A stretch of 64,000 nucleotides of DNA from Bacteroidota bacterium (GTDB taxonomy: Bacteria > Bacteroidota > Bacteroidia > JABEUT01), in assembly GCA_013285655.1 (NCBI GenBank), contig JABDHI010000006.1, positions 933 through 64,932 of the forward strand, given 5' to 3'. The notes beneath the pieces were generated by a model. The model saw nothing but the letters and a program-made list of their open reading frames with translations, was not told the DNA's origin and ran no database searches. This document shows, piece after piece, positions 8,043 through 21,789 of this stretch; the stretch's first letter is position 1, and every line of letters starts with the position of its first letter. The position numbers and the translations under genes are program-made.

Positions 8043-8070
8043 AGTTTAAAACAAATCTAAATTTTTGAGT

Positions 8071-8127: not shown

Positions 8128-8238
8128 CAACGTCAAACAAACGCTGAATTTTGAATTCTAAATCTTAAATTTTGAATTGAAAACGGCGAACCACAGTACT
8201 CATTTAGAATTTAAAATTCAACATATAAAATTGCAGTT

Positions 8239-9339
8239 ATGGGAGCCATACCATTCAAACACTACTCGCTCGATGCACCCGATGCAGCCTGGGATGCAGA
8301 TGCCGAAATTGCCAAGGCCGGTACCGACGACCTGCGCGTTATGTGCGCCTGGGACGATGTTACCCGCCCTGAGCAGAAGAACGGCTACAAGCTGCCTCAC
8401 CACCGTGCCGATACATACCACACCAACCTCAAGGGCCTTATGGCCGCAGGCAATGCGCTGATGGGTGCACGTGGCGGCGTTGAAATACCGAAGTATGATT
8501 TAGATGCTGTGAAAGCGCATTTGCAAAAGCACTACCACGAGTTTGGCCGCACTGCTCCCTGGGAGAGCAAAGCCGAATGGCGCTGGTACCAAACCAAAAG
8601 CGCAGGCAACAACTCACTGAAAGATGTTGATACCACTGGCCGCACTGTTTGTGGATATTTTGCATCGTTCAACACCACGGACAGCGATGGCGATATGTTT
8701 GCACCCGGTTGCTTTGCCAAAAGCCTGAACGAAAACAGTAGTCGCATTATGCACCTGTTGCAACACAACACCCTGCAACCTATTGGCCGCCCCAGCTTGC
8801 TGAAAGAAGATAACACGGGTTTGTACTTCGAAACACCTATTGCTAAAACACAACTGGGCGATAATGTGTTACAACTTTACCGCGATGGTGTGTACAAGGA
8901 GCATAGCGTGGGCTTTGAGATGATAAACTCTTCAATCGAAGCCCTTCGACAAGCTCAGGGTGACCGTCATGTTGAGCCTGTCGAAACATCTGTAAATGTT
9001 ATTAAGGAGGCTAAGTTGTGGGAGGGCTCAACCGTTACCTGGGGAGCGAACCATAATACTCCGCTGGTTGGCATAAAATCAAATTACTCACTGCCCAATA
9101 CTCACTACTCACATCTAACATCACAGAATATTCTCGATGAGGCGCTGGAGCGCAGTTCGCTTATTTACAAGCAGCTGCACCGCGGCAACCTACACGATGA
9201 TACCTATACACTTTTAGAGATTGAGCTTAAGCAGTTACAGGCTCTTTTGGCAGCAAGGCCGTGCGATCACACTTTGCCCGCTTCAAACGATGCTGAGCTT
9301 AATGTGCTCAATAAGATCAATTCTTTGCTTAAACAATAA
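8239..9339 (+). CDS. phage prohead (capsid maturation) protease, HK97/S78 family, with an N-terminal extra domain and C-terminal coiled coil
   Basis: Protease core GRTVCGYFASFNTTDSDGDMFAPGCF...LLQHN...HSVGF...AKLWEGSTVTWGANHNT. The N-terminal KLPHH domain is common in phage protease fusions. The gene lies directly upstream of the capsid gene. Confidence 0.85.
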   Translation: MGAIPFKHYSLDAPDAAWDADAEIAKAGTDDLRVMCAWDDVTRPEQKNGYKLPHHRADTYHTNLKGLMAAGNALMGARGGVEIPKYDLDAVKAHLQKHYHEFGRTAPWESKAEWRWYQTKSAGNNSLKDVDTTGRTVCGYFASFNTTDSDGDMFAPGCFAKSLNENSSRIMHLLQHNTLQPIGRPSLLKEDNTGLYFETPIAKTQLGDNVLQLYRDGVYKEHSVGFEMINSSIEALRQAQGDRHVEPVETSVNVIKEAKLWEGSTVTWGANHNTPLVGIKSNYSLPNTHYSHLTSQNILDEALERSSLIYKQLHRGNLHDDTYTLLEIELKQLQALLAARPCDHTLPASNDAELNVLNKINSLLKQ

Positions 9340-9361
9340 AGGCATTATGATGACTTGGATA

Positions 9362-9532
9362 TGGCACAATCCTTTGCATCTATGTGTCAAGTCCTATCAT
9401 CTTCTCTCATCACCTCACGTGCCATTACTAAGGCGCGCTGGTGTTTCGCGTTAGGGATTGCAGTGGAAAGCCCGGAGTGTAGCGAGGACTTGTAACGTAA
9501 AGCCCGACCCGAGGAACGAGGGGAACGCCCAA
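9362..9532 (+). repeat. AB-element, full copy
   Basis: TGGCACAATCCTTTGCATCTATGTGTCAAG...CACCTCACGTGCC, then GCGTTAGGGATTGCAGTGGAAAGCCCGGAG...GGGGAACGCCCAAG. Confidence 0.9.
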
Positions 9533-9634
9533 GTAATAATGAATAGATTCTTCGCTTCACTCAGAATGACAAAAACTGAGATTGCTTCGTGCCTCGCAAT
9601 GACGAATACAGAAATAACAATTAAACACTGAACA

Positions 9635-10861
9635 ATGGAAAACAAACAAGTGGACGCTATCGTGAAAGAAATAAGCGATAACATAAACACCATAAAAACA
9701 AAAGGCGAAGCGCAAGATGCGCAGCTAAAATCGCTCGATGCTAAAATAGCAGCCAACCAATGGCAGCTGGGCGATAAATACGAGGCCCTGCGTAAGGACT
9801 TCGACCAGATGACTGCTATGCTTAAAAAAGGCAGAATATTTGGTGCTGCCGACCGGGGCATGACCGTAAAAGACTTACTGCATGCACAACGCGAAGGACT
9901 GGCGAGTCTGAGGAATAAAGCCGGCATACCGGTAAGCTTGTCGTTAAAGGCAAATCATTTATTTACCAAAACGGCAGGTAATGTTACCGAAGGTAGCAAC
10001 CTAATAGGCACTGATGCTATACCACCTACCAGGCTCGAAGGTATTTATTCGCAACCCTTAAGGCCGGTGCATATACGCCAGTTTATGAATACTACGGCTA
10101 CCGATAGTAACCAGATACTGTTTAACCAGTTGACCGGTGAAAACGACGGAAGTGGAAGCACAGCAGAAGGAGCCAGTGCGGCACAGAGCGACTTTACCAT
10201 TACCGCGCAAGAAGTGGTAGTACGTAAGCTGAACACTTACCTTACCATTAGTAAAGAAATGATGGAAGATGCCGACTTTGTAGATAACTACATTAACACC
10301 CACGTAGCCGGCCGCTTGCTGATGCAGGAAGATACCCAGATAATATCGGGTAACAACAGTGCGCCAAATTTGCAGGGTATTGCACCTATTGCATCGGCGT
10401 ATGCTAACCCAATTATTCCGGGTGCTACACCAAGCAGCATTAACTATTACGATGTGCTGCACCAGGCTGTTACCCAGGCTCGCGTGTTGTACTACACACC
10501 AAACTATATTATCATTCACCCGAACGATTATAACGCATTGGTGTTAAGCCGCGATAGTTATGGCCGTTACCAGTTTCCGCAAATGATAAGCGGAGCACCG
10601 GGCACCTTCTTTATTAACGGTGCGCAGGTTATTGCTAACACGGCTATGACACAGGGTTACTTCCTTGTCGGCGATTTTCAACTGGGTGCTACCCTTGCTT
10701 ACCGCGACGAGATAAACGTAACCTTCAGTAATCAGCACGTAGACAACTTTGTAAAGGGGTTTATTACTGTGCTTGTTGAAGAACGCCTTGCCAATGTGGT
10801 TTACCGACCAACCGCATTTGTGTATGGCAACTTTAACCAGGCGGAAGCTTCTGGCTCGTAA
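9635..10861 (+). CDS. phage major capsid protein, HK97 fold
   Basis: 408 aa with an N-terminal coiled-coil delta-like region, then sequence typical of HK97-family MCPs (LNTYLTISKEMMEDADFV...ISGNNSAPNLQGI...YIIIHPNDY). It follows the prohead protease. Confidence 0.85.
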   Translation: MENKQVDAIVKEISDNINTIKTKGEAQDAQLKSLDAKIAANQWQLGDKYEALRKDFDQMTAMLKKGRIFGAADRGMTVKDLLHAQREGLASLRNKAGIPVSLSLKANHLFTKTAGNVTEGSNLIGTDAIPPTRLEGIYSQPLRPVHIRQFMNTTATDSNQILFNQLTGENDGSGSTAEGASAAQSDFTITAQEVVVRKLNTYLTISKEMMEDADFVDNYINTHVAGRLLMQEDTQIISGNNSAPNLQGIAPIASAYANPIIPGATPSSINYYDVLHQAVTQARVLYYTPNYIIIHPNDYNALVLSRDSYGRYQFPQMISGAPGTFFINGAQVIANTAMTQGYFLVGDFQLGATLAYRDEINVTFSNQHVDNFVKGFITVLVEERLANVVYRPTAFVYGNFNQAEASGS

Positions 10862-10975
10862 AGCAAAGCCCCATCCCAACCTTCCCCATTAGGGAAGGAA
10901 ACAGAGCTTGCTAAAGTCCTCCCCAATGGGGAGGATTTAGGAGGGGCTTCTATTTAGTTCTTTCATGGTTGGTTT

Positions 10976-11014
10976 GGCCGGGCTTTGTTCTTAGGGACGG
11001 GTCCGGCTTTTTTT
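10976..11014 (+). terminator. rho-independent terminator after the capsid gene
   Basis: GGCCGGGC...GTCCGGC stem followed by TTTTTTT. Confidence 0.55.
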
Positions 11015-11173
11015 ACAATTAAGAATTAAAAATTAAGAATTACGAATGAAAACGAGGGCGGTTTTTGTCCCCCGCTGGAGGGGGAAGTGGGAGGATTGAA
11101 CAAGCAAGCCGGTATTTTGCAGAAACAAGGATTTTTCGTAAATTTGTATAGGTTACTCATTAATTATATAGCC

Positions 11174-11410
11174 ATGACTACACTGCAAATAAAGAATAAG
11201 CTTATCAGTACCATAAAATCGGTTAAAGACCCTGATGTATTGGAAGATTTGTACAGGTTATTGAATATTGAGACAGAGGATATTGAGAAGCTGAAAATCC
11301 CTGCGCGTGTAAAGAAAGCAATTGCTCAAGGACAAAAAGATATTAAAGAAGGCAGACATTATACAAATAAGCAGGCAGACGATCAGATTGACCGATGGCT
11401 AAAGAAATAG
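11174..11410 (+). CDS. type II antitoxin (partner of the ParE/RelE toxin)
   Basis: 78-aa acidic protein (MTTLQIKNKLISTI...) that overlaps the toxin start by 16 nt. The ORF-track start at 11087 lies in repeat DNA, so the internal ATG at 11174 is preferred. Confidence 0.6.
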   Translation: MTTLQIKNKLISTIKSVKDPDVLEDLYRLLNIETEDIEKLKIPARVKKAIAQGQKDIKEGRHYTNKQADDQIDRWLKK

Positions 11411-11697
11411 TATGGTCGGCACTGGCAATACACGACCGTAAGAATATTTTATCGTACTGGATAAACAGGAACCACTCTAAGTTATATAGTATTAAACTGG
11501 ATATGCTTATTAGAGAAGCTGTAAAACTAATTGCAGAATACCCGTTTATTGGTAAGCCAACAGATGCCAGAGGGATTAGAGCTAAGAAGGTGCGCGATTA
11601 TTTTATTCTTTATACAGTAAAAGAGAATCAGATACAGATATTAACTATATGGGATACCCGCCAAGACCCACAAGACCTAAAAGAAAGATTGAAGTAA
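11395..11697 (+). CDS. type II toxin, RelE/ParE family
   Basis: 100 aa with family-typical layout (EIVWSALAIHDRKNILSYW...YPFIGKPT...YFILYTVKENQIQILTIWDTRQDP). Confidence 0.75.
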   Translation: MAKEIVWSALAIHDRKNILSYWINRNHSKLYSIKLDMLIREAVKLIAEYPFIGKPTDARGIRAKKVRDYFILYTVKENQIQILTIWDTRQDPQDLKERLK

Positions 11698-11705
11698 TTT
11701 GAGGT

Positions 11706-12641
11706 ATGAGGAAACCACTGTATATCATCTTAATATCTGTTTGCCTGTTGATACTTATTGCGTGCCAGCAAAAAAATGGGTTCACTAATAAAAATGAAGC
11801 TAAAAATGATATGGTTAATGGACTCAAAGAAGGTAAGTGGATTGAATATTGGGATTATAATCATTATGTAACTGATACTAATAAGGGATATGAAATATAC
11901 ATACTCACGATTTATAAAAAGGGTAAGCCATATGGTATAGTTCGAGAATATTATAAATGCGGAAAAATAGAACGAGAGATCCCTTATGTAAATGGAGTCG
12001 AGAAGTGGTATAGTGAAAACGGGTATGAGTGGGGTGAATACCCAACAATAAACGGTAAAAGGGATGGAATCGCTAAAGAGTATTTTAAGGGTATGTTAAC
12101 AAAGGAAGCCCCTTTTAATAATGGTAAGTTAAATGGAGTGGTAAAGGAATATATCGAAAGTGATAAAGTAATTAAAGAAACTCCTTATTCTAATGATGAT
12201 AAAAATGGAATTGAAAAATGGTATTACGAAAATGGTAAAGTTTTTAAAGTAGTTCCATATAAGAATGGGGTAAAGGATGGAATTGAAATTGTTTACGGTG
12301 AGAAAGGAGAAATTGAATCTAAGCATTCGTTTAAAAGGGGTTGCGAATACGGAACGGGAATAGATTATTATTACAATGGAAAGATTATGTATGAAGTGCC
12401 TTATATTATAGATAGTACAGTTGGAAGCTTTAGAAGTGAAATAAATGGCATTAAGAAAACCTATTATGAAAGTGGTGAGTTGAACTTTGAGATGCCTTTT
12501 ACCAAGGGTAACTTAAATGGAGAAGTAAAAGAATATTATAAAAATGGGAAATTAAAGTCTGAAACTAATTATAAGAATGGGGTGTTTGGTATACAAGGAA
12601 AAACAAAACACTATGACGAAATCGGTAACGAAATAAAATGA
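11706..12641 (+). CDS. YwqK/MORN-variant repeat lipoprotein, paralog 1
   Basis: Lipoprotein signal (LLILIAC), the shared N-terminal motif GFTNKNEAKNDMVNGLKEGKWIEY, and repeated NGxxxGxxKEYYxxGKL units. Confidence 0.8.
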   Translation: MRKPLYIILISVCLLILIACQQKNGFTNKNEAKNDMVNGLKEGKWIEYWDYNHYVTDTNKGYEIYILTIYKKGKPYGIVREYYKCGKIEREIPYVNGVEKWYSENGYEWGEYPTINGKRDGIAKEYFKGMLTKEAPFNNGKLNGVVKEYIESDKVIKETPYSNDDKNGIEKWYYENGKVFKVVPYKNGVKDGIEIVYGEKGEIESKHSFKRGCEYGTGIDYYYNGKIMYEVPYIIDSTVGSFRSEINGIKKTYYESGELNFEMPFTKGNLNGEVKEYYKNGKLKSETNYKNGVFGIQGKTKHYDEIGNEIK

Positions 12642-13372
12642 CCAAACCACTGTATATAACCTTACTTATTGCATTGCTTATAACCAGCTGCAAGCAAACG
12701 GCCAAAGAGTATTACAGTAACGGCATGCTAAAAAGTGAAGTTCTGCTATCGAATGGCGTAAAAGATGGAATAATGAAGGTATATACTGCTGATGGTAAGT
12801 TAAGAGCTGAGATACCTTATGTAGATGGAAAAGAAGAAGGTATTGGCAAATGGTATTGGGATGATGGCAAGATACAGATACTAATGCCTAAGAAAAACAA
12901 TAAAGCAAACGGAATAGTGAAGTGGTATTTCGAGAATGGAAACCTGAGCCAGGAGATACCCGACAGCGATGGTGTGAAGAACGGATTGGAGAAGCGCTAT
13001 TACGAGAGCGGTAAACTATTGGCAGAAACCATGTACAGCAACGGCGTTGAAAATGGTCCGGAGCGGGAGTATTTCGAGAATGGTAAATTGAAATTTGAGG
13101 TTACCAATAAGATGGGTAAGCGAGCCGGGCTATGCAAAACCTATTACGAAACCGGGTTTATAACAGAGACACCTTACATTGATAATGAAATAAGCGGTAC
13201 CGAGAAGATATATGATGCCAGTGGCAAGTTATTTCAGGAGACTGTATTTAAGGATGGTGATAAGGTTAGCGAAAAGTATTATAAAGATGGAAAGCTGGAT
13301 AGCGAAACCGATTACAGTAATGGTACAGAGACCGATCATAAAGAGTTTGATAAAAACGGCAATGAAAAGTAA
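12638..13372 (+). CDS. YwqK/MORN-variant repeat lipoprotein, paralog 2
   Basis: ATGA overlap with paralog 1, lipoprotein signal (LLITSC), and repeated G-x-K-x-G-x-x-K-x-Y-Y-x-x-G-K-L units. Confidence 0.8.
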   Translation: MTKPLYITLLIALLITSCKQTAKEYYSNGMLKSEVLLSNGVKDGIMKVYTADGKLRAEIPYVDGKEEGIGKWYWDDGKIQILMPKKNNKANGIVKWYFENGNLSQEIPDSDGVKNGLEKRYYESGKLLAETMYSNGVENGPEREYFENGKLKFEVTNKMGKRAGLCKTYYETGFITETPYIDNEISGTEKIYDASGKLFQETVFKDGDKVSEKYYKDGKLDSETDYSNGTETDHKEFDKNGNEK

Positions 13373-13494
13373 AATGAAACAGCCCTCTCCAAACCTCTCC
13401 CTCGAGGGAGAGGTTTTTGGAAAGAAAACTCCTTTAGTCCTCCCCTCTAGGGGAGGATTTAGGCGGGGCGAATTGGTAACGAAATAAAATAATT

Positions 13495-13872
13495 ATGAAG
13501 CTAAAGATAATAATACCTTGTTTTTTACTTCTTATGCCTGTTTTGGTGGTTGGACAAAAGGCCCACCATACCAAATATTTATATGCTGACAGTGGCTTTA
13601 CCAATAAAGCAGAGGCCAAGAACGTTACTATAAATGGTTTGAAGGATGGGAAATGGATGGAGTATTATAATCTTGAAACTAAAACATCAAATTCTAATCC
13701 TTATGAAACAACCATAAACGTACCAACTGCAGATACTAATGCCATGTATTATGATTTGGGTGTTTACAAAGCCGGCAAGCTAAATGGGGTAGTAAGATAC
13801 TACGAGAATAAAAGCAATAAGTATATGTTTTGGCATTATTTTATCAATGGTAAAAAAATAGAAAGCCGGTAA
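13495..13872 (+). CDS. YwqK/MORN-variant repeat protein, short/truncated paralog 3
   Basis: Signal peptide plus DSGFTNKAEAKNVTINGLKDGKWMEY; only 125 aa, so it may be a truncated copy. Confidence 0.6.
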   Translation: MKLKIIIPCFLLLMPVLVVGQKAHHTKYLYADSGFTNKAEAKNVTINGLKDGKWMEYYNLETKTSNSNPYETTINVPTADTNAMYYDLGVYKAGKLNGVVRYYENKSNKYMFWHYFINGKKIESR

Positions 13873-13956
13873 ATAAAGTAAAGCCTAAATGATAACCCTC
13901 GTTGACTACAATAACTTTTACGCTTCATACATGCGATATAAAATAATAAAATAACT

Positions 13957-14679
13957 ATGAAACTAAAAAAACTGATTACTTGCTCTTTATTACTTGCTCC
14001 TGCCTTTATGATGGCGCAGAAGCATATCCAACAACCACAATACCCCGATAGTGGCTTTATCAATAAAGCAGAGGCGAAGAACATAACCATAGATGGAAAA
14101 AAAGAAGGGATGTGGATCGATTATTTGGATTCATTGCGCAGACTTACTACAGATACCAATGCGCCGTATTATGCACTTAATGTATATAAGGCGGGTAAGT
14201 TTACTAAGCTTGAGCGCGGGTATTATAAAAGTGGAAAGTTGATGTTTCGCATACACTATGACAATGGCAGGGAAAATGGACGGGAAGAAAATTTTTATGA
14301 AGATGGGAAAGTAAGATCGGATGCTATGGTGATAAATGACACTTTGCATGGAACGGTTAAATTCTACTATCCTAATGGAAAAATGAAATCGCTTACTAAT
14401 TATTTTCACGGAATAAAAGTGGGAGAGGTTAAAGTTTATTATGAAAACGGCAATATACACCAGGAAGCTGAATATTCTGATGGTGTGCCGAATGGCACTG
14501 TTACCACATACTACGAAGATGGTAAGCTGAAAGATGTAGATACCTATGACAACGGTAATTTAAACGGGCTAAGCAAAATGTATTACGAAGATGGTAAGTT
14601 GGAACGTACAGTAAGTTATAACGAGGGTACACCGGGAGAAATTAAGAACTACGATGAAAACGGCAATGAAATAAAGTAG
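13957..14679 (+). CDS. YwqK/MORN-variant repeat protein, paralog 4
   Basis: Signal peptide, DSGFINKAEAKNITIDGKKEGMWIDY, MORN-like repeats, and C-terminal YDENGNEIK. Confidence 0.8.
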   Translation: MKLKKLITCSLLLAPAFMMAQKHIQQPQYPDSGFINKAEAKNITIDGKKEGMWIDYLDSLRRLTTDTNAPYYALNVYKAGKFTKLERGYYKSGKLMFRIHYDNGRENGREENFYEDGKVRSDAMVINDTLHGTVKFYYPNGKMKSLTNYFHGIKVGEVKVYYENGNIHQEAEYSDGVPNGTVTTYYEDGKLKDVDTYDNGNLNGLSKMYYEDGKLERTVSYNEGTPGEIKNYDENGNEIK

Positions 14680-14749
14680 CATGAATTGGCACATGAAACA
14701 TTGAAGTGTGTGCCATTATGTGCCAAAATTTAAACGAGCTAAAATAACT

Positions 14750-15220
14750 ATGAAACTAAAAGCAATAGTACTACCAGTATTTTTAATGGGTATCTCTGTA
14801 TCGGTGAAGGCCCAAAAGCATGCCCATACAGAAGCATACGATAGTGGCTTTACCAATAAAGCCGAAGCCAAAAACAAAATGGTGAATGGTAAAAAAGAAG
14901 GTAAGTGGGTGGAGGAATTTAAAAACACTGGAGATACTACAAAGCCAATTTATAGGTTAGCGGTTTATAAAAGTGGTAAGCTAAACGGCATTGCCAGGTA
15001 TTACTATGCTAATGGAACCGAATACGAAGAAGAAGCATACACCAATGGTACCAGGAATGGGGTTACTAAAGAATTTGATAGCCGTAAACACCTTGTAAAA
15101 GAAACTCCGTATATTAACGATACTATAAACGGAGTAGTTAAAGATTTTAATGCGGATGGAACACTTAAAAAAGAGACGTTGTATTATAAGGGGAAGGAAG
15201 GAATTTCGAAAAGCCACTAG
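14750..15220 (+). CDS. YwqK/MORN-variant repeat protein, paralog 5
   Basis: The internal ATG at 14750 gives signal peptide MKLKAIVLPVFLMGISVSVKAQ, followed by DSGFTNKAEAKNKMVNGKKEGKW. Confidence 0.75.
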   Translation: MKLKAIVLPVFLMGISVSVKAQKHAHTEAYDSGFTNKAEAKNKMVNGKKEGKWVEEFKNTGDTTKPIYRLAVYKSGKLNGIARYYYANGTEYEEEAYTNGTRNGVTKEFDSRKHLVKETPYINDTINGVVKDFNADGTLKKETLYYKGKEGISKSH

Positions 15221-15494
15221 GCCAATTAAGAATTAAAAATTAGTAATTAAGAATTGAGGAACAATGTTGAACCCAATAGTTTTAAGAGTCCCTTTAGGGG
15301 ATGGGATGAAAATGAAATACTTGATGAGAAGCTACACACATTTTTTCGACCTGTGTGCAATTGTGTGTAATGATAATTTATTAATGGAGTGAATGCTTTA
15401 CACAAATACCCTGTTTCGTGTAAAAATATGTAAAGTAAAAAGAAGTCATAAGTGGAAAGTTGTAAGTCGTTAGAGAAACAGTAAATTGTAGTTT

Positions 15495-15578
15495 GCGTTA
15501 GGGATAGAAGCGGTTACCCCGCAGCGCAGCGAGGAGTAAAAGCGGATAGCCCGACCGAGGAACGAGGGAACGCCCAAA
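15495..15578 (+). repeat. AB-element, module B only
   Basis: GCGTTAGGGATAGAAGCGGTTACCCCGCAGCGCAGCGAGGAGTAAAAGCGGATAGCCCGACC...GGGAACGCCCAAA. Confidence 0.9.
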
Positions 15579-15652
15579 TGAAATTAGAAATGAAAAGCTA
15601 AAAGTGAAAATTAAATAGGAAGGTCTTCGACAAGCTCAGACTGACAATATAT

Positions 15653-17230
15653 ATGAAACGCCCCTTAATATATACCATACTACTAACTACGCTGCTAATA
15701 AGCTGCCGTAACGATACGGGCTTTACAAACCCAAAGGAAGCTGAGAACATAGATATAATGGGGGTAAAGACAGGCAAATGGCTGGATAGGTTAGATAGTA
15801 ATTTCGAAATTACTAAAGATACCAACGCGCCTTTTTACAACCTGGTGTTTTACCGTGCGGGTAAAGCCAACGGAATGATACGCACCTATTACCGCGATGG
15901 TAAACTGCGGTGCGAATATGCGGCATGGGGTTACAGGCCAGATGATACGGTAAAGGTGTATTACGAAAGCGGAAAGATAAAATCGTTGATACCTTATGTG
16001 CACGATACCATTACAGGTACCACGCGAGATTTTTATAAGAACGGAAAACTGGAGCTGGAAATACCCCGTAAAAACGGGTTGTACGACGGGGTTACCAGGA
16101 AGTATTACCCCAATGGGCAGCTGGAGAAAGAGACTCCCTGCACCGATGATAATATTGACGGGCCCGAAAAGGCATATTACGAAAACGGCAAGCTGCAATA
16201 TGTGGCTCCGTATGTTGATGGTAAGCTAAATGGCAATTACACCGAGTATTACGAAAACGGAAAGGTAAAAGCCATTTCGCCTTATGTAAATGGTAAGCTT
16301 AACGGAATTAAAAAAGAATATGCCGACGACGGTGCCTTAAGCTACGAGGGCAACTACGAATTTGGTAACCGTACCGGCTTGGTTAAGTGGTATTACGCCC
16401 ATGGCAAACTGAGTGAAGATGCTATGTATAAGAATGATAGTGTGCAGGGTATAGTACATTGGTATGATACAAATGGCAAAGTTCAATATACGGCGACCTA
16501 TAAAAACGATGAAATTATAGACGGGAAATTTAAAAGCGATCCGGATGATGATGGAGATTATTCGATAGGTACTTATAAAAATGGTGCGTTGAATGGAACC
16601 ATGTACTGGTATTATGCCGATGGTAAAGTAGAAACAGAAGTGACCTATGTAGATGGTTTGGCACAAGGCATTAAAAAAGGCTTTTATGAGAATGGCAAAC
16701 CGAAGTTTACCCAGGCTATGAAAGATGATGATGTCAATGGCATTGCTATATTTTATAAGCCCGATGGAAGTGTAGATTATAAGTGTGTATATGACCTGGG
16801 CATTCCGGTAAGCGGAATTGAGCGCAGCAATTTCGAAAAAGGCGGAGAAGGAGCTTATACCGAAGCAACGTATGATAACAGTAAGCTTAATGGCAGTTTT
16901 AAATGGTTTTACCCTGATGGTAAGCTGGAGTGCCAGTGTATATATGTAAACGATAGCGTGCTAAGCGGTACTGCACGTAAAGACTATGATGAAGCAGATG
17001 GCGGTGGCTATACCGAAGCATGTTATGTAAATGGCAAACTTAATGGCGTTTACAAATGGTTTTACTCCGAAGGAAAATTGGCCGCCCAAATACCGTATAC
17101 CAACAATGTAGAAGATGGACTGGCTACTTTTTATTATAAAAGCGGTATAAAAAAAGAAGAAATACAGTGGAGGGACGGACGCCGTATGGCAGATGCCACA
17201 TATGATGAGCATGGCAAACTGATGAAGTAA
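15653..17230 (+). CDS. YwqK/MORN-variant repeat lipoprotein, long paralog 6
   Basis: 525 aa with lipoprotein signal (LLISC), GFTNPKEAENIDIMGVKTGKW, and about 18 MORN-like units. Confidence 0.8.
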   Translation: MKRPLIYTILLTTLLISCRNDTGFTNPKEAENIDIMGVKTGKWLDRLDSNFEITKDTNAPFYNLVFYRAGKANGMIRTYYRDGKLRCEYAAWGYRPDDTVKVYYESGKIKSLIPYVHDTITGTTRDFYKNGKLELEIPRKNGLYDGVTRKYYPNGQLEKETPCTDDNIDGPEKAYYENGKLQYVAPYVDGKLNGNYTEYYENGKVKAISPYVNGKLNGIKKEYADDGALSYEGNYEFGNRTGLVKWYYAHGKLSEDAMYKNDSVQGIVHWYDTNGKVQYTATYKNDEIIDGKFKSDPDDDGDYSIGTYKNGALNGTMYWYYADGKVETEVTYVDGLAQGIKKGFYENGKPKFTQAMKDDDVNGIAIFYKPDGSVDYKCVYDLGIPVSGIERSNFEKGGEGAYTEATYDNSKLNGSFKWFYPDGKLECQCIYVNDSVLSGTARKDYDEADGGGYTEACYVNGKLNGVYKWFYSEGKLAAQIPYTNNVEDGLATFYYKSGIKKEEIQWRDGRRMADATYDEHGKLMK

Positions 17231-17277
17231 ATAGTGTAAATGGTGAGTTGTAAATGAAATATCACCTAATGTGGTTC

Positions 17278-17377
17278 GCGTTAGGGATTGTAGTGGAAAG
17301 CCCGGAGCATAGCGAGGATCCCGCAGCATTGCGGGACCCGACCCGTCCCGAGTACTCGGGAGAGGGGAACGCCCAAG
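17278..17377 (+). repeat. AB-element, module B only
   Basis: GCGTTAGGGATTGTAGTGGAAAGCCCGGAG...CCCGCAGCATTGCGGG...TCCCGAGTACTCGGGA...GGGGAACGCCCAAG. Confidence 0.9.
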
Positions 17378-17431
17378 TAATTAAATGGAATAGATGCTTC
17401 ATTCTTCAGCATGACAAAAATGGAATAAGAA

Positions 17432-17980
17432 ATGAAAACCTTTGCAGAAACAGAAAGACTGATATTACGGGAGTTGGTAATGGCCGACGACCAGGGTATG
17501 TTTGAGCTCGACTCAGACCCGGAGGTGCACAAATACCTGGGCAACGAACCGGTTAAAACCATAGAACAAAGCCGCGATGCCATTAACTTTATAAGGAAAC
17601 AATATGAAGATAATGGCATTGGCCGCTGGGCGGTTATTGAAAAACAATCGGGTAAGTTTATAGGTTGGGCCGGCCTAAAACTTATTAAAGAACCTGTAAA
17701 CGGACACATTAACATACACGATGTTGGCTATAGGTTTATAAAGCAAGCCTGGGGCAAAGGCTATGCAACCGAAGCCGCTAAGGCTTGTATAAATTATGGG
17801 TTTAACACCCTTGGCCTAACCGAAATTTATGGTTTTGCCAATTTAGATAATGAAGCATCGAAGGCGGTATTGCAAAAGTGCGGCTTGGTATACCGCAACA
17901 ACTTTACCTTTGTGGGTATTGAGCACGCATGGTACGAGATTAAAAGCGTAGCTTTTAATCAATTAAAAATTAAGAATTAA
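17432..17980 (+). CDS. GNAT-family N-acetyltransferase (RimJ/RimL-like)
   Basis: ETERLILRE start, then ...GIGRWAVIEKQSGKFIGWAGL...GYRFIKQAWGKGYATEAAKACINYGF. Confidence 0.85.
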   Translation: MKTFAETERLILRELVMADDQGMFELDSDPEVHKYLGNEPVKTIEQSRDAINFIRKQYEDNGIGRWAVIEKQSGKFIGWAGLKLIKEPVNGHINIHDVGYRFIKQAWGKGYATEAAKACINYGFNTLGLTEIYGFANLDNEASKAVLQKCGLVYRNNFTFVGIEHAWYEIKSVAFNQLKIKN

Positions 17981-18068
17981 AAATTGCGAAACAATAATGA
18001 GTTCAATATTTAATAATTGAGATGGGATTAATTATAACATTTGCGTTTTTGCGGTAAAATAAATTAAA

Positions 18069-19268
18069 ATGAAAGCGATCTTATTTTTTTCACTTTTAGC
18101 GTTTCACTTTTCACTTTTAGCTCAATCAGGCGGTTTTACAAATAAAGCTGAAGCTGAGAACCATAAGATAGATACGGTTAAAGAAGGTAAGTGGATAGAG
18201 TATATAGATAGTACAGGCCATGTAACTACTGATGGGGCTGCGCCGGCTTATGTGCTTACCAATTATCATTTGGGTAAACCTGCAGGTGTTGTAAATGGCT
18301 TTTTCCGGAATGATGATGCTAAGCTTTTTGAACTGCCTTACATAAATGGTATGAAAAACGGTGTACAGAAAATATTTTACCATAGCGGGGCTCTCCATAT
18401 TGAAGTTCCGTTTACCAATGATACTGTTAATGGTATTAAAAAAGAATATTTAGAAAGTGGAATACTTGCACAAGAAACGACTTATAAAATGGGTATTCAG
18501 CATGGCCTCTTTAAAAAGTATTACGATAATGGCACTGTAAACTGGATAATTCCTTTTGTAAACGGTAAGATAGATGGCGTACAACGTGAATTTTATAAAA
18601 GCGGACTCCGCCAGGGGTTATTTGCTTTTGTGGGCGGTGTTGAAACCGGTGTTGACTCTCAGTTTTACGAAAGCGGAAAACCCCAATTTATTACACCTTT
18701 TGTAAATGGTAAAAAAAACGGTGTCGAAAAAGATTATTACCCGAGTGGAATACTTAAAGGTGAATACCCTTACCTGGATAATAAGACCGATGGCCTTGTA
18801 ATAGAGTACTACGAGAGCGGTAAACTAAAAAGCGAAAAGCCCTGCAAGCAAGATCAGATAAACGGTACTGAAAAAGATTATTACGAAAGCGGTTTGCTAA
18901 AGGCTGAGTTTCCATACAGCAACGGTGTATCTAATGGTATTGTTAAAGAATATTATGAAAGCGGTAAGCTGAAATACGAAACGCCTATAACCAATGGTAA
19001 AAAAAATGGTGTCGAAAAAGACTATTACGAAAGCGGTATACTTAAAGGCGAATTTCCGGTGACTGATGGTAAAACCAATGGACTTGTAAAGCAGTATTAC
19101 GAAGACGGCAAACTACAATTTGAAGCACCATATACATTAGATAAACGAAACGGAACAGCCAAAGAATATTATGAGAATGGGAAAGTAAAATCTGAAATAC
19201 CCTATACCAACGACATTATTAGCGGCCCTGTAAAGAGCTATGATGTTAATGGCGCCCCAATCAATTAA
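18069..19268 (+). CDS. YwqK/MORN-variant repeat protein, paralog 7
   Basis: Signal peptide, GGFTNKAEAENHKIDTVKEGKWIEY, and about 13 regular NGxKxGxxKxYYESGxLK units. Confidence 0.8.
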   Translation: MKAILFFSLLAFHFSLLAQSGGFTNKAEAENHKIDTVKEGKWIEYIDSTGHVTTDGAAPAYVLTNYHLGKPAGVVNGFFRNDDAKLFELPYINGMKNGVQKIFYHSGALHIEVPFTNDTVNGIKKEYLESGILAQETTYKMGIQHGLFKKYYDNGTVNWIIPFVNGKIDGVQREFYKSGLRQGLFAFVGGVETGVDSQFYESGKPQFITPFVNGKKNGVEKDYYPSGILKGEYPYLDNKTDGLVIEYYESGKLKSEKPCKQDQINGTEKDYYESGLLKAEFPYSNGVSNGIVKEYYESGKLKYETPITNGKKNGVEKDYYESGILKGEFPVTDGKTNGLVKQYYEDGKLQFEAPYTLDKRNGTAKEYYENGKVKSEIPYTNDIISGPVKSYDVNGAPIN

Positions 19269-19302
19269 AAATTACGAATTAAAAATTAAGAATGCGGCGT
19301 TT

Positions 19303-19422
19303 GTCATTGCGAGGAACGAAGTTGTTTTTATAATCCCGACCAATTGTGGCGGGGCAATCTCAAAGCAAATACTCAGACTGCCACATCCGCCCCGAGCACT
19401 CGTGGCCGGACCCGCAGTGACG
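19303..19422 (+). repeat. C-element (~110-120 nt nested-hairpin repeat)
   Basis: The first ~60 nt are nearly identical to 27878-27940 (GTCATTGCGAGGAACGAAGTTGTTTTTATAATCCCGACCAATTGTGGCGGGGCAATCTCAA). The ends GTCATTGCGA / TCGCAGTGAC are inverted. Confidence 0.85.
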
Positions 19423-19448
19423 AGTTACTAACCACTAAAACCACTAAA

Positions 19449-20759
19449 ATGAAACTGACAATTCTTGTCTGTTCGCTGCAAAAGCGACTGACTTTGTTTG
19501 CAAACCTATGCGAACACCTACAAACCCAAGCCGATAAATACCCTAACCAGGTTGAACTGCTTTGGCTGGGCGATAACAAAACCATGAGCGTTGGCGAAAA
19601 ACGCAACAAGCTGTTAAGCCTGGCTAAAGGCGACTACGTTTGTTTTGTGGATGATGACGATTGGGTTCCCGATAACTATGTTGTTGAAATTATGAAGGGC
19701 ATAGAGCAGAAGCCCGATTGCGTTTGCTTTAATGCTATCTATACAGCAGATGGCACTTCGGTGGCTGTCGAATACAGTTTACAAAATTTATTGAATGTGG
19801 ATGAGCCCGGCAAACCACGCCTGCGTGTACCTAATCACTTAATACCTATTAAGCGAGAATATGCACTCAAAACCATGTTCCTCGAAAAAAGCTTTGGCGA
19901 AGATACCGACTATGGCTTGCGTGTTAGGCGTTTGCTAAAGACTGAATATCGCATTGAAAAGCCACTGTACCATTACCGGTTCTCGGCTGCTACCAGCGAA
20001 ACACACCGTTACTCACCAAAGTATAAAAAACCTAAACCAAGCCCCATGATAAAGATGGATGTGGTGATGGTGAGTGATGCAGGACTACAACCCGCAGCCC
20101 CCCTTAATACCCCCATTGGGGGGGAACAAGAAGTGATCGTTCCAAGCCAAGGCTCCCTCCACAATGGAGAGGGTTGGGGTGGGGCTGTTATGACTCAGGC
20201 GGCAATCAATAGTATTGCATCACCCGAGGTGAATGTAATAGTGTTGGAAAAGAGTGAACAGATACGCTATGCCAATGCCGATACTTATTTGCAAAGGCAT
20301 CCCTTCAATTATAACCAGTGCTTAAACAACGGTGCTACTATGGGTAATGCTGAGTTAATATGTTTTACCAATAACGATGTGGTGTTCCCTGATGAGTTTT
20401 TGCACAGCGTGCTGCAAATTATAAAAGATACCGGAGCCGATGTGCTATCGTTCGCTAACCAACATGGTTTCCTTCATCCTGAAATTATTAGCGGCTTTTG
20501 TTTTGTAATTACGCGCAAGGCCTATTATAAAATAGGTAAGCTAAAACAAGATTATCTTTTTTGGTGTGCCGATAATGTTACCAGCGAACAAATTAAGCAA
20601 CATGGACTGAAAGAGGTTAAGAGTCCGTTGCGGGTTACGCACTTAACTTCGGTTACGCTTAAAAAGCTTCCGGCAGATTTGCGTGAGGCTTATACCCGCG
20701 ATTGTGTGAAAGCCTTTAATCGCGATTATAATCAGAATGTGTTGAACTTAGGAAAGTAG
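19449..20759 (+). CDS. two-domain glycosyltransferase (GT2-like + GT2-like), with a repeat-derived in-frame insert
   Basis: The internal ATG at 19449 gives MKLTILVCSLQKR...YVCFVDDDDW (DxD). The second domain is MIKMDVVMVS...ELICFTNNDVVF. An insert at 20095-20185 is made of palindromic repeat words. Confidence 0.7.
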   Translation: MKLTILVCSLQKRLTLFANLCEHLQTQADKYPNQVELLWLGDNKTMSVGEKRNKLLSLAKGDYVCFVDDDDWVPDNYVVEIMKGIEQKPDCVCFNAIYTADGTSVAVEYSLQNLLNVDEPGKPRLRVPNHLIPIKREYALKTMFLEKSFGEDTDYGLRVRRLLKTEYRIEKPLYHYRFSAATSETHRYSPKYKKPKPSPMIKMDVVMVSDAGLQPAAPLNTPIGGEQEVIVPSQGSLHNGEGWGGAVMTQAAINSIASPEVNVIVLEKSEQIRYANADTYLQRHPFNYNQCLNNGATMGNAELICFTNNDVVFPDEFLHSVLQIIKDTGADVLSFANQHGFLHPEIISGFCFVITRKAYYKIGKLKQDYLFWCADNVTSEQIKQHGLKEVKSPLRVTHLTSVTLKKLPADLREAYTRDCVKAFNRDYNQNVLNLGK

Positions 20760-20877
20760 TCGTTAGTCAATGATTGTCATTGCGAGGAACGAAGCAATCC
20801 CCTTGGGGCTCATCAGGATCTTTGAAAAATAAATAGAGAACCGAATAATCTCAACGCAAATAAAGTTGATTTGGTTT

Positions 20878-21059
20878 TGGCACAATCCTTTGCAACTATG
20901 TGTCAAGTTCTAACATCGAATCTCTTCACCTCACGTGCCGTTACCCTTGTGCAATGGTAGTTTGCGTTAGGGATAGTAGCGGTTACCCCGCAGCGCAGCG
21001 AGGAGTAAAAGCGAATAGCCCGACCCGTCCCGAGTACTCGGGAGAGGGGAACGCCCAAA
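20878..21059 (+). repeat. AB-element, full copy (reference copy)
   Basis: TTGGCACAATCCTTTGCAACTATGTGTCAAG...CACCTCACGTGCC, a linker, then GCGTTAGGGATAGTAGCGGTTACCCCGCAGCGCAGCGAGGAGTAAAAGCGAATAGCCCGACCCGTCCCGAGTACTCGGGAGAGGGGAACGCCCAAA. Confidence 0.9.
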
Positions 21060-21108
21060 GAATGATTAACTGATGTATTATTCTGAACTAATCAATAAAT
21101 AATATCCA

Positions 21109-21789
21109 ATGAAATTTTTGAGCCTGAAATGGGGCAAAGAATATGTAGTAGCCATGGGCGATACTATAGATTGCGTATCGCTGATAATGCAACTATCTAA
21201 AAAAGCCCCCCTGCTAATACCAGTGCAAGCACATTGCATGGCAACGGTACCAAGCCTGTTTCCAAAACATGCGGCAGTCGATTTTGTAACCATGCGCAAC
21301 TTTGCACACCTGCCCGAACTGGAGCGTGAATATGAAACGCTGAACATACATAGCGACGAAACTAAAACCGTAGGCATTAAGGGCCATAATGATATGATTG
21401 GCTTGTATATGGCTGCCAACCTCGACTATAGCAAGCGCGATGAACATTGCCCTATACCAACGCAGGTAAAACACGTGGTGCAGTTAAAAGTTCCAACAAG
21501 GCCCTATGCTTTTGTACCCGAAGGTGGTAGCCCGGGTACCTATTTTGTAAACCGTAAGTATATCGATCCGTCATTAGATATTATTGTGCCTCCTAAAAAC
21601 ACGCCTATGTTGCAATGGGCATCTATCATTGAGCATGCTACTGAAATACATTGCCATATTACAAGTTGGTGGCGGCTGATAGATAAGATTCCTACACGTG
21701 GTAAGCTGTTTATGCATCATTATGCCCGGCAAAGCTCTATACCTATTAACGAGTTTGAGTTTAGGAAGGAATGGGAGCAGTTACTTTAA
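21109..21789 (+). CDS. hypothetical protein
   Basis: 226-aa ORF with even codon usage and no family recognised. Its position next to the glycosyltransferase suggests, but does not show, a surface-modification role. Confidence 0.5.
   Translation: MKFLSLKWGKEYVVAMGDTIDCVSLIMQLSKKAPLLIPVQAHCMATVPSLFPKHAAVDFVTMRNFAHLPELEREYETLNIHSDETKTVGIKGHNDMIGLYMAANLDYSKRDEHCPIPTQVKHVVQLKVPTRPYAFVPEGGSPGTYFVNRKYIDPSLDIIVPPKNTPMLQWASIIEHATEIHCHITSWWRLIDKIPTRGKLFMHHYARQSSIPINEFEFRKEWEQLL

Follow-up and report, generated by a model that had tools for sequence, protein, structure and literature searches.

In Fusobacterium, MORN2 genes are expanded and clustered, 87% of them have signal peptides, and their function has not been assigned (Manson McGuire et al. 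2014, PMC4222103). In B. subtilis, YwqK serves as antitoxin to YwqJ, an LXG toxin (PMC8321402). Moreover, constant N-terminal domains such as MAFB-N, Microscilla-N and Amoebophilus APD1/APD2 have been described in polymorphic proteins (Zhang et al. 2012, PMC3482391). The array of seven paralogs (P1-P7) analyzed here is a further case of a kind already known.

The array and its neighbouring genes

All seven open reading frames listed in the first-pass annotation were present on the plus strand, spanning 11706-19268 with the starts it had given (Table 1). Its placement of the array next to phage-derived genes was borne out: genes for an S78 protease and an HK97 capsid precede the array, and a gp6-like connector and a GH108 lysozyme follow downstream. 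The window, which is the whole 64,000-nt stretch of DNA analyzed, also encodes a TIR protein (PADLOC model match, 4.6e-58) and a 2346-aa protein that is an NRPS.

Upstream of the antitoxin gene, the candidate -7 box TAAATTTG is accompanied by TTTG at the -33 position. The putative antitoxin, which had no match in the Pfam search, overlaps ParE by 16 nt, the ParE gene ends 8 nt upstream of P1, and the ATGA overlap between P1 and P2 at 12638 reported earlier is real; this upstream toxin-antitoxin pair probably shares a transcript with P1 and P2. The orphan C-terminal relic was also recovered, past an inserted repeat element in which a terminator scan found a terminator-like hairpin (13395-13410).

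Table 1. Features of the array and its borders (positions in the window).
Feature	Position	Strand	Evidence
Prohead serine protease (S78)	8239..9339	+	Pfam Peptidase_S78 2.1e-21; PHROG head maturation protease
HK97-type major capsid protein	9635..10861	+	Pfam Phage_capsid 5.5e-36; phrog_10
Candidate Bacteroidetes-type -7 promoter box	11139..11146	+	Pattern search, consensus match only
Putative antitoxin, 78 aa, ParE/RelE module	11174..11410	+	78-aa gene called on L001 and L080
ParE/RelE-family toxin	11395..11697	+	Pfam ParE_toxin 1.8e-10; TIGR02385 above cutoff
P1, 311 aa, lipoprotein-type MORN_2, with N-terminal module	11706..12641	+	MORN_2 90 bits; lipobox LIAC
P2, 244 aa, lipoprotein-type MORN_2, without N-terminal module	12638..13372	+	MORN_2 123 bits; alignment
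Inserted repeat element, ~90 nt, copy of 10870-10950	13376..13468	+	Sequence
Relic of family C-terminus, RIGNEIK then stop	13469..13492	+	Translation
P3, 125 aa, short: SPase-I leader, N-terminal module, one further unit	13495..13872	+	Module HMM 3e-26
P4, 240 aa, SPase-I-type	13957..14679	+	MORN_2 102 bits
P5, 156 aa	14750..15220	+	MORN_2 25.2 bits, under cutoff
Intergenic REP/MITE-like repeat	15484..15556	+	One of eight copies in the window
P6, 525 aa, lipoprotein-type	15653..17230	+	MORN_2 195 bits
GNAT acetyltransferase inside the array	17432..17980	+	Pfam Acetyltransf_3 3.7e-33
P7, 399 aa, SPase-I-type, conserved 'anchor' gene adjoining the glycosyltransferase	18069..19268	+	MORN_2 152 bits
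Family-2 glycosyltransferase, right anchor of slot	19446..20759	+	Pfam Glycos_transf_2; PHROG moron glycosyltransferase

Repeat architecture and age of the paralogs

Five of the seven proteins (P1, P2, P4, P6 and P7; 90-195 bits) scored above the Pfam MORN_2 gathering score of 29.6 bits, and close homologs of the window proteins carry the database name 'YwqK family antitoxin', which agrees with the YwqK/MORN relationship first proposed. This name, carried over on the basis of similar repeats, is not evidence of function. P3 had no Pfam match, MORN_2 included, yet the N-terminal module is present in it. By heuristic reading of the sequence, leaders are found on all seven proteins, as had been noted: lipobox leaders in three (P1 LIAC, P2 ITSC, P6 LISC) and signal peptidase I (SPase-I) type leaders, ending in G or A before a Gln at +1, in four (P3, P4, P5, P7). 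The same reading of 192 family members gave 157 SPase-I leaders (A before Q) and 18 lipobox leaders, and the N-terminal module begins about 6 residues past the predicted cleavage site.

This module, (D)SGFTNKAEAKN..G.KEGKW.EY..T.DTNAP.Y.L.VYK.GK, is indeed shared by six paralogs and is missing in P2; its identity among the window paralogs is 52%, versus 37% for the remainder of the protein. The C-terminal endings YDENGNEIK (P4), YDEIGNEIK (P1) and FDKNGNEK (P2) agree with the family consensus. Motif and ending are family-wide (95 of 120 homologs outside the array) and give no evidence of local duplication. In the AlphaFold2 model of P4 (pLDDT 91.6), the whole chain consists of beta-hairpins in a continuous solenoid, for which the best Foldseek matches were the MORN1 structures 6t69 and 6t4d, with junctophilin also matched. 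In some homologs, the repeats are joined to an OmpA-family or a trypsin-like domain (P0044, P0037), which fits an envelope location.

The duplications of the array are ancient, the paralogs being 34-53% identical with saturated synonymous sites (pS 0.64-0.87). The shared upstream sequence was found as described, AAAATAACTATGAAACTAAA preceding P4 and P5 and the variant AAAATAATTATGAAGCTAAA preceding P3, and the intergenic segments called homologous (15249-15315 and 17980-18045) have in common an AT-rich heptad element and a further stretch of about 25 nt. The region had also been called AT-richer than its flanks, which holds in a comparison with the genes for capsid and protease (GC 0.32-0.42 in the array region vs 0.47-0.50); the GC3 of the array (0.28-0.44), however, equals that of ordinary host genes in the window (0.28-0.44). 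The compositional outliers are the capsid and protease genes and not the array, whose codon composition is host-like.

A conserved slot and a dispersed family

The gene order protease, capsid, MORN genes, glycosyltransferase recurs in at least four other MAGs, with capsids 91-93% identical to the one here, at the related loci L003, L005, L015 and L018, and u188 and an OMP-like gene continue the syntenic order where the relatives' loci reach so far. The protease on the left flank is 73-80% identical in these four loci and L002, the capsid, as left anchor of the variable slot, 89-93% in five relatives (dN about 0.05, dS 1.0-1.6), and the glycosyltransferase 50-64% in L002, L003, L005, L015 and L018. 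Between these borders there are seven MORN genes in this window, five each in L003 and L005, one each in L015 and L018 and none in L002. The first-pass annotation had set its reading against a core, syntenic array with housekeeping-like conservation; across these relatives, the position is syntenic and the content is hypervariable.

P7 has orthologs in L075 (g6, 74%), L003 (gene 5, 57-60%) and L018 (its single gene, 56%), and no match above 48% was found for P1, P2, P3 and P5 in the cross-species slot comparison. In L075, P4 has an ortholog with 64% identity (dN/dS 0.25), P5 with 47-61% (g3, dN/dS 0.20) and P6 with 96% (g4, dN/dS 0.07, dS 0.24), P5 being shorter than g3 (195 aa from the MKLK start, 218 aa as called); the GNAT of the array is 86% identical to L075 g5, is common to L075 only and was not found in L003, L005, L015 and L018. 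The five ortholog pairs with L075 gave dN/dS of 0.07-0.25, and these five genes are under purifying selection. In the near-identical strain L080, whose capsid does not differ and whose toxin-antitoxin pair is 99% identical, P1 is missing and the P2 ortholog lies directly 3' of ParE. The deletion/insertion junction lies in a 14-nt tract AAACCACTGTATAT common to the P1 and P2 leaders, and P1 is missing via recombination in this shared leader-coding tract.

Outside the array, the pattern GFTNK[AN]EA was found among 185,579 species genomes only in about 18 uncultured Bacteroidia MAGs, a census that, being seeded with one exact peptide pattern, is a lower bound biased to the canonical motif. One MAG has at least 17 family copies over 11 loci. 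Tandem arrays with 2-5 members occur often, with cluster sizes of 1 (48 cases), 2 (12), 3 (5), 4 (1) and 5 (3). Family loci, up to 11 per genome, adjoin housekeeping genes. The family is a large lineage-specific expansion in an uncultured Bacteroidia clade of bog, lake and soil.

The earlier suggestion of a phage-encoded surface-exclusion set can be weighed at this point. As lysogenic-conversion or superinfection-exclusion cargo of a prophage, the exported proteins, encoded in a moron slot that follows the capsid gene, would cover envelope receptors or close them to other phages, while the glycosyltransferase and acyltransferase modify the surface polysaccharide. The array does lie between the capsid and the gp6-like connector, co-directional with the head genes, and borders a glycosyltransferase of a PHROG 'moron' class with Acyl_transf_3 and the GH108 lysozyme downstream; in L002, L003, L005 and L080 the slot is occupied by genes for different small proteins with export or lipoprotein leaders, and capsid-MORN adjacency was seen in four other MAGs. 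However, no portal, terminase or tail genes were found at the locus and the flanking cellular genes (TonB, collagen-like protein) are the same in different species, which indicates that the remnant is fixed and no longer a mobile phage. About 90% of the family members detected in MAG loci sit apart from any capsid gene, only 2 of 50,697 phage records match the family, 2.9 million viral contigs yielded only four distant relatives, all without the motif, and a PHROGs search of the array proteins gave no real match. With the host-like GC3, unlike that of capsid and protease, these results make phage cargo quite unlikely.

The other suggestion was an exported orphan immunity or decoy array, in which each MORN protein would neutralise a periplasm- or surface-acting toxin from competitors (e.g. 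T6SS, T9SS cargo) and copies are kept without toxin genes. The database name and the role of YwqK against YwqJ favour it, as do a copy number that varies between strains and species while the kept genes are under purifying selection, the conflict-type surroundings (ParE pair and TIR protein), and L074, where MORN genes are dispersed among many small uncharacterised genes near an integrase. Against this, the window is without a polymorphic-toxin domain, as first observed, and none was found in 156 neighbour proteins at other loci. These comprise the six largest neighbours and 150 that directly adjoin family members at 38 loci; for the 150, the 25 commonest of 164 Pfam families were covered, so that a rare toxin neighbour could have escaped. 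Members are spread over as many as 11 loci in a genome, next to housekeeping genes. In the survey of polymorphic toxins (PMC3482391), immunity proteins that are exported or lipoproteins are the exception, whereas all seven proteins here have export leaders. In addition, no recombinase was found adjoining the array. The array is also a single family and not a mixture, and orphan immunity islands reportedly hold mixed families as a rule. We consider this reading unlikely.

Proposed role and related systems

We find it fairly probable that the seven genes belong to a family that evolves by birth and death and encodes binding proteins, periplasmic or tethered to a membrane, and that they occupy a variable slot of an old prophage remnant. 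The cellular location, binding role and ligand of the array proteins we infer as follows. Each protein would be made with a Sec leader, four being cut by SPase-I before Gln and three lipid-anchored via the lipobox Cys, and with such leaders their place of action would be the periplasm or a membrane to which they are tethered, and not the cytoplasm. After cleavage, the protein would open with the constant module (GFTNKAEAKN cap, two specialised MORN units, DTNAP loop), followed by 24-residue MORN hairpins, which vary in number, and a constant YDENGNEIK-type end. The constant ends may cap and stabilise the solenoid or provide a shared handle, and the variable hairpin surface may bind differing envelope or external ligands. 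The slot, between the capsid and glycosyltransferase genes of an anciently fixed HK97-like prophage remnant, would evolve by gene birth and death, the P7 anchor being kept across species while other members come and go, with recombination between similar leader-coding 5' ends gaining or losing genes. The surroundings (capsid gene, toxin-antitoxin pair, TIR defence gene, surface-modifying enzymes) fit a conflict-related role, which lies outside this neutral description.

Surface adhesins through which cells attach or aggregate, a role put forward for the MORN2 proteins of Fusobacterium and for LIC20035 of Leptospira, would be another use of exported, repetitive, modular proteins in a lineage-specific expansion (cf. 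PMC4222103), and T9SS cargo adhesins with SprB repeats adjoin family members at several loci. All MORN members match the NCBIfam LIC20035 adhesin model below threshold, but the best score (P7, 96 bits) is far under the 250-bit cutoff. The Pfam search reported no C-terminal sorting domain of the T9SS for any of the seven, and four of the seven have SPase-I leaders without an evident route over the outer membrane. By sequence reading, the acidic lipoprotein surface-export motif, in the form in which it has reportedly been defined, does not follow the lipobox Cys. An adhesin function is, in our view, very improbable.

Compared with described systems, binding proteins of the kind we favour share with B. 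subtilis YwqK (COG2849) the MORN_2-type repeats and, for close homologs, the name. YwqK is intracellular and has no leader, and its gene immediately follows that of the toxin, whereas the window proteins all have export leaders and no such toxin beside them, nor was one seen among the commonest neighbour families at the 38 related loci. Eukaryotic MORN proteins (MORN1, junctophilin, SET7/9 N-domain) share the fold, a solenoid of beta-hairpins in a single layer (Foldseek E from 5e-7 to 1e-4), but with sequence identity of only 14-21%, a cytosolic location with membrane/cytoskeleton contacts and an unrelated genomic context. Like the polymorphic proteins with constant N-terminal domains, the window family has many paralogs per genome and a lineage-restricted conserved module right after the signal peptide or lipobox, ahead of a more variable C-terminal part; in those proteins, the module was proposed as an anchoring or clustering handle (Zhang et al. 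2012) and the C-terminal part carries toxin/effector domains, whereas here the variable part is MORN hairpins only and the module, belonging to the same solenoid in the model, may simply be a cap. With Fusobacterium MORN2, the family shares PF07661 repeats, mostly exported products, lineage-specific expansion to dozens of genes, and genomic clustering with local duplication and gene content that differs between close strains. It differs in its environmental Bacteroidia hosts (vs host-associated Fusobacteria), the absence of FadA or RadD adhesin neighbours, the constant N-terminal module and C-terminal ending, which are not part of the Fusobacterium study's description, and the fixed position of one array, in a slot that adjoins the gene for a phage capsid.

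Array proteins and their predicted fold

All seven plus-strand ORFs of the array, P1 to P7 (see the table), were present with exactly the starts proposed in the first-pass annotation, and the MORN relationship which it had claimed was borne out by the Pfam profile MORN_2 (PF07661): P1, P2, P4, P6, and P7 scored 90, 123, 102, 195, and 152 bits over the whole protein, so that five of the seven passed the gathering cutoff of 29.6 bits, P5 fell just under it (25.2 bits), and the short P3 gave no match to this profile. P3 and P5 are family members by an HMM of the N-terminal module (3e-26 and 2e-27). The module itself, (D)SGFTNKAEAKN-x3-G-x-KEGKW-x-EY...T-x-DTNAP-x-Y-x-L-x-VYK-x-GK, was aligned in six of the seven paralogs as proposed, the exception being P2, in which the lipobox runs directly into the MORN repeats. 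Signal or lipoprotein leaders were found on all seven proteins by heuristic reading of the sequence, three with a lipobox and four of the SPase-I type. The leaders of P1, P2, and P6 start with M(R/T/K)(K/R)PL and finish at the lipobox Cys (LIAC, ITSC, LISC); those of P3, P4, and P5 start with MKLK, and those of P3, P4, P5, and P7 finish with Gly or Ala and then Gln, as is usual for signal peptidase I in Bacteroidota. Among the window paralogs the module was 52% identical, versus 37% over the remaining protein, and the DNA repeats in the array had a periodicity of 72 nt (24 aa).

Sequence searches of the PDB were uninformative (no match with P7, and with the family profile weak matches only, to the SET7/9 MORN region), so a fold search was required to place the protein. 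The AlphaFold2 model of P4, for which a 36-sequence family alignment was the input (pLDDT 91.6, pTM 0.80), consisted of nothing but beta-hairpins from residue 43 to the C-terminus, and its AEAKN segment held a short helical turn. The best PDB matches in the structure search were MORN1 of Toxoplasma, Plasmodium, and Trypanosoma, followed by junctophilin-2 and the SET7/9 N-domain. As modelled, the array proteins have the features of a MORN_2 solenoid, namely tandem units of about 23 residues which form a beta-hairpin solenoid. Because the P4 model is all hairpins, the N-terminal module would be a cap plus two specialised MORN units with a loop between them, continuous with the repeats.

Features of the window around the MORN array (empty cells: no value)
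Feature	Position (strand)	Size	Remark
P1	11706 (+)	311 aa	
P2	12638 (+)	244 aa	
P3	13495 (+)	125 aa	
P4	13957 (+)	240 aa	
P5	14750 (+)	156 aa	
P6	15653 (+)	525 aa	
P7	18069 (+)	399 aa	
S78 prohead protease and HK97-type capsid pair	8239-10861		upstream of array; capsid 9635-10861
ParE/RelE toxin-antitoxin pair	11174-11697		directly 5' of array
Promoter consensus	11139		-7/-33 pattern match only
Relic RIGNEIK plus stop	13469-13492		
Family-2 glycosyltransferase	19446-20759		
ORF without assigned family		226 aa	last gene of co-directional stretch 8239-21789
TIR-domain protein	26327-26974 (-)	215 aa	
gp6-like head-tail connector	starts 27223		downstream of TIR protein, co-directional with array
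Acyl_transf_3 enzyme, then GH108 lysozyme			downstream of connector; ordinary cellular genes beyond
Two-module NRPS	51186-58226 (-)	2346 aa	condensation, adenylation, carrier, thioesterase domains; unrelated to array
REP/MITE-like repeat, 8 copies	3355, 7956, 9448, 15495, 17278, 20964, 21870, 46850	~70-170 nt each	
Second short repeat	10870-10950; 13376-13468		after capsid stop; after P2
AT-rich heptad element (AATTAAR)n	11016-11048, 15223-15255, 17960-17985, 19262-19294, 27829-27854, 39552-39577(-)		

Family distribution and age of the paralogs

The module and the YDENGNEIK-type ends, noted earlier as marks shared within the array, were present, but they are family-wide rather than local: 95 of the 120 best outside homologs had the module directly after the leader, and the family consensus ends in KxYDENGNEIK. 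The pattern GFTNK[AN]EA was scanned in one genome per species (185,579 species), which gave 69 confirmed loci, all in about 18 metagenome-assembled genomes (MAGs) which carry a Bacteroidetes or Bacteroidia label and stem from projects on bogs, humic lakes, and soil; among these bins are two labelled Saccharibacteria. On these loci the module HMM found 110 members, in 48 clusters of one gene, 12 of two, five of three, one of four, and three of five, and the richest single MAG had as many as 17 members, spread over 11 loci; all these figures are minimum values, given that one exact pattern seeded the scan. The array of seven is the largest observed, yet of the same kind as the other family clusters. 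Leaders were present in 175 of 192 non-redundant members (heuristic reading; 157 of SPase-I type with Ala before and Gln after the cut, 18 with a lipobox), and the module started a median of 6-7 residues past the predicted cleavage site, so the module is the mature N-terminus. In a few homologs the MORN repeats were fused to OmpA-family or trypsin-like domains, which fits an envelope location of the family.

Most of the duplication signs which had been listed were recovered in detail: the ATGA overlap at 12638, the string AAAATAACTATGAAACTAAA upstream of both P4 and P5 with a variant before P3, and the relic of a gene end beyond a repeat insertion of about 90 nt. The intergenic segments downstream of P5 and of the GNAT gene, which had been called homologous, proved partly similar. 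The duplications themselves are old, since the window paralogs are 34-53% identical and their synonymous differences saturated (pS 0.64-0.87), and on these values a recent origin of the array by tandem duplication was rejected. The AT content of the array does exceed that of the phage head genes, but its GC3 (0.28-0.44) equals that of ordinary window genes, and the outliers are the protease (0.53) and the capsid (0.49).

Genomic setting and gene turnover between capsid and glycosyltransferase

In the co-directional stretch 8239-21789 the capsid gene is followed by the toxin-antitoxin pair, P1 to P6, a GNAT acetyltransferase, P7, a family-2 glycosyltransferase which matches phage 'moron' families, and the 226-aa ORF; several exported proteins and the TIR protein lie beyond, and the genes upstream of the protease look cellular (TonB, PAP2). 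Between the capsid gene and the connector, the next head gene, lie about 16 kb of cargo. The array was thus rightly described as embedded between phage fragments, with protease and capsid upstream and connector and lysozyme downstream; no portal, terminase, or tail gene was found around the locus among the window ORFs scanned. The TIR protein was the single PADLOC match among the cargo genes (PDLC03016, TIR-TM, 4.6e-58), and the MORN proteins, GNAT, and other slot proteins had none. This match covers profile positions 1-199 of 293, and the protein thus lacks the C-terminal portion of the model; the gene is a probable anti-phage defence gene within the cargo region.

P1 and P2 are probably co-transcribed with the upstream ParE pair, as judged from the gaps between antitoxin, ParE, P1, and P2 (-16, 8, and -4 nt) and from a full Bacteroidetes promoter consensus, which was informative solely upstream of the antitoxin gene; a terminator-like hairpin lies inside the repeat after P2. 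A sigma-70 promoter and terminator scan of the window gave the same counts as shuffled sequence. A toxin-antitoxin pair (DUF433 + DUF5615) also lies directly 5' of a MORN array at an unrelated locus (L072, 9236-9806). Toxin-antitoxin pairs as a regular array partner were rejected: none was among the 25 commonest neighbour Pfam families, so the association is probably incidental.

When window proteins were searched against all fetched loci, the gene order recurred in four other MAGs (L003, L005, L015, L018), with 5, 5, 1, and 1 MORN genes, respectively, in the slot between capsid and glycosyltransferase genes. Their capsids were 91-93% and their glycosyltransferases 56-64% identical to those of the window, and the shared flanks included a collagen-like protein (L003, L005), TonB (L003), u188 (L003, L015, L018), an OMP-like protein (L003, L018), and a lipoprotein (L003). 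The viral-database contig L002 had the protease, the capsid (89%), one unrelated 196-aa lipoprotein and then the glycosyltransferase, with no MORN gene in the slot. The presence/absence comparison which had been proposed gave a syntenic slot with 0 to 7 MORN genes. P7, which adjoins the glycosyltransferase, was conserved (74% to g6 of the close relative L075, 57-60% to gene 5 of L003, and 56% to the single gene of L018), and a second ortholog group comprised gene 3 of L003, gene 1 of L005, and the L015 gene. Among the compared arrays P4 and P6 had orthologs only in L075, and the best matches of P1, P2, P3, and P5 were at most 48%.

The L075 array was 64% (P4), 47-61% (P5), 96% (P6), 86% (GNAT), and 74% (P7) identical to the window, and on its left side lay a different gene, at least 469 aa long. 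By their dN/dS (0.25, 0.20, 0.07, 0.09, and 0.12, in the same order) these five ortholog pairs are under purifying selection. Their dS ranged from 0.24 (P6) and 0.88 (GNAT) to about 1.0-1.6 (P4, P5, P7); therefore the array is a recombinational mosaic and not one inherited block. Even the P6 and GNAT block (window 15102-17949, L075 2670-5437; 87.5% identical in DNA) is not uniform, given the two dS values, and the pattern suggests that lineages have recently exchanged part of the array.

The near-identical strain L080 had an identical capsid protein, a toxin-antitoxin pair 99% identical in DNA, and an additional 157-aa exported gene after the capsid. In L080, P1 was missing and the P2 ortholog lay directly after ParE: in the three-way alignment L080 tracks the window ParE-to-P1 sequence through ATGAGGAAACCACTGTATAT and then switches to P2, and the leader-coding 5' ends of P1 and P2 have the tract AAACCACTGTATAT in common. 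This is direct evidence that similar leader sequences are recombination points at which array members are added or removed.

Several intergenic repeats accompany the array. Rfam and tRNA scans of the window found nothing, so the repeats are not of a known RNA family and a tRNA attachment site is not visible. A REP/MITE-like repeat (core GCGTTAGGGATWGWAGYGG...CCCG.AG; no Rfam match) had five of its copies within 9.4-21.9 kb (six within 7.9-21.9 kb) and also occurred in L002, L075, and L080; same-strain assemblies break at these repeats (the short contigs L001, L082, and L083). The copy of the second repeat (cccctc...ggggaggatttagg) after P2, with its terminator-like hairpin, sits between the P2 stop and the relic, which suggests that repeat insertion duplicated or displaced the 3' end of the gene. 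The AT-rich heptad element lies at or over the stops of P5, GNAT, P7, and the connector gene and in the capsid-side gap; no copy is expected from shuffles, and L002 had one copy just past the capsid stop (2679-2704). As a cassette boundary the heptad was appealing, because the block best conserved with L075 is flanked by two copies, but it was rejected since the element is absent from L075 and nearly absent from other loci.

Candidate functions and related systems

We consider it reasonably probable that the array is a local expansion of clade-specific, exported MORN_2 solenoid binding proteins, periplasmic or membrane-tethered, in a hypervariable slot of a fixed prophage remnant. Constant caps would hold the variable hairpin surface of these proteins, which would most likely bind ligands in the periplasm or while tethered to the membrane, and the array would fill the slot of an anciently fixed remnant and evolve through gene birth and death.

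The protease/capsid pair was syntenic in L002, L003, L005, L015, L018, and L080, with capsids 89-93% identical across species (dN about 0.05, dS 1.0-1.6 and saturated) beside neighbouring syntenic genes only 50-70% identical; the cellular flanks recur, and portal, terminase, and tail genes were not seen close by. This pair could be a domesticated phage-derived function and not a decaying prophage. That capsid, protease, and slot together form a domesticated locus kept clade-wide, with the MORN array as a fast-turnover envelope-protection cassette, seems very unlikely to us; the MORN proteins would then serve as decoys for, or would block, the receptor-binding proteins of phages or exported toxins, and the cassette would have diversified via recombination in the shared leader sequences.

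An exported immunity or decoy array of YwqK type, as the first-pass annotation suggested, is unlikely. YwqK itself is not known to have a leader, and the leaders read heuristically on all seven window proteins argue against cytoplasmic action. A survey of polymorphic toxins found exported or lipoprotein immunity proteins exceptional (PMC3482391), and YwqK as studied experimentally is encoded beside the toxin gene ywqJ (PMC8321402). No polymorphic-toxin domain was found in the window ORFs scanned, so the earlier remark that no toxin gene is visible holds for the window, where the 2346-aa protein is a non-ribosomal peptide synthetase. Among 150 proteins encoded no more than two genes away from a family member, at 38 other loci, 164 Pfam families were matched, the commonest being MORN_2 (8), Glycos_transf_2 (4), DinB_2 (4), TPR (3), and Por_Secre_tail (3); toxin families were absent from the 25 commonest, and the six largest neighbours were T9SS cargo with SprB repeats, alpha-2-macroglobulin, and a sortilin/BNR protein, with no toxin. 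The array thus appears to lack both defining features of YwqK immunity, an adjacent toxin gene and a cytoplasmic location. The immunity islands of Ross et al. 2019 reportedly have an adjacent tyrosine recombinase, mixed immunity families, and conserved repeats between them. No integrase or recombinase domain was found in the ORFs scanned from 284 to 34322, and none adjoins the array, which is a single family; its intergenic repeats are window-wide and REP/MITE-like, and those at the array boundaries are not conserved in L075. The locus of one relative (L074, ENA ERZ27253820 k141_2800179, 3327-20147) encodes an integrase and a DNA methylase and has four MORN_2 genes interspersed in a long series of small genes without assigned function; it resembles a mobile or immunity-type island more closely than the window slot does.

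The other earlier suggestion, a phage-encoded surface-exclusion set, we judge quite unlikely. Like morons, the exported proteins are inserted co-directionally between structural genes, other small exported proteins fill the same slot in L002, L003, L005, and L080, and surface-modifying enzymes border it. However, the family matched 2 of 50,697 deposited phage genomes, only four distant relatives without the motif occurred among 2.9 million viral contigs, a PHROGs scan of the MORN proteins gave no meaningful phage family, and about 90% of family members in the MAG loci lie away from any capsid gene; moreover, L002, a related viral contig, lacks MORN genes, and the window locus is without portal, terminase, and tail genes. 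Because the slot in relatives holds exported proteins between surface-modifying borders, this array may still have a conflict-related role. Giant viruses (for example Orpheovirus, Hyperionvirus, and Pithovirus; BFVD) show a heavy expansion of the MORN_2 fold, with the label 'YwqK family antitoxin' in some cases, and the Helicobacter equorum phage record BK070118.1 had 15 matching places. A surface adhesin is highly improbable, with scores of 24 to 96 bits against LIC20035 (NCBIfam NF033566; curated cutoff 250).

The original description of the array was accurate, and the array clearly illustrates how genes turn over within a slot; for now the finding is a descriptive one and modestly surprising. 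Exported MORN_2 proteins make up one of the larger repeat families in bacteria for which no function is known, and the 'YwqK antitoxin' label, which has spread automatically, is unsafe for the exported Bacteroidia subfamily, with its leaders, many dispersed loci, and no toxin partners. With 0 to 7 members across strains and species, two conserved borders, and a visible recombination junction, the slot is a tractable natural experiment and a defined place for testing what selects MORN gain and loss.

A constant module right after the leader with a variable part behind it recalls the MAFB-N and Amoebophilus APD domains, proposed anchoring handles (PMC3482391), whereas the module of the window family would, according to the P4 model, belong to the same fold as the repeats. 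The closest described phenomenon is the MORN2 expansion of invasive Fusobacterium, which comprises hundreds of genes, 87% with signal peptides, that are clustered, locally duplicated, strain-variable, and of unknown function (PMC4222103). The window family resembles it in lineage-specific expansion (at least 17 members in one MAG, arrays of 2-5 common), in its leaders, in clustering, and in local gain and loss (P1 at strain level), but it belongs to another phylum and habitat, its N- and C-terminal modules are constant, and one of its arrays occupies a fixed slot next to a capsid gene; a ligand, if found, would probably inform the Fusobacterium MORN2 question too.
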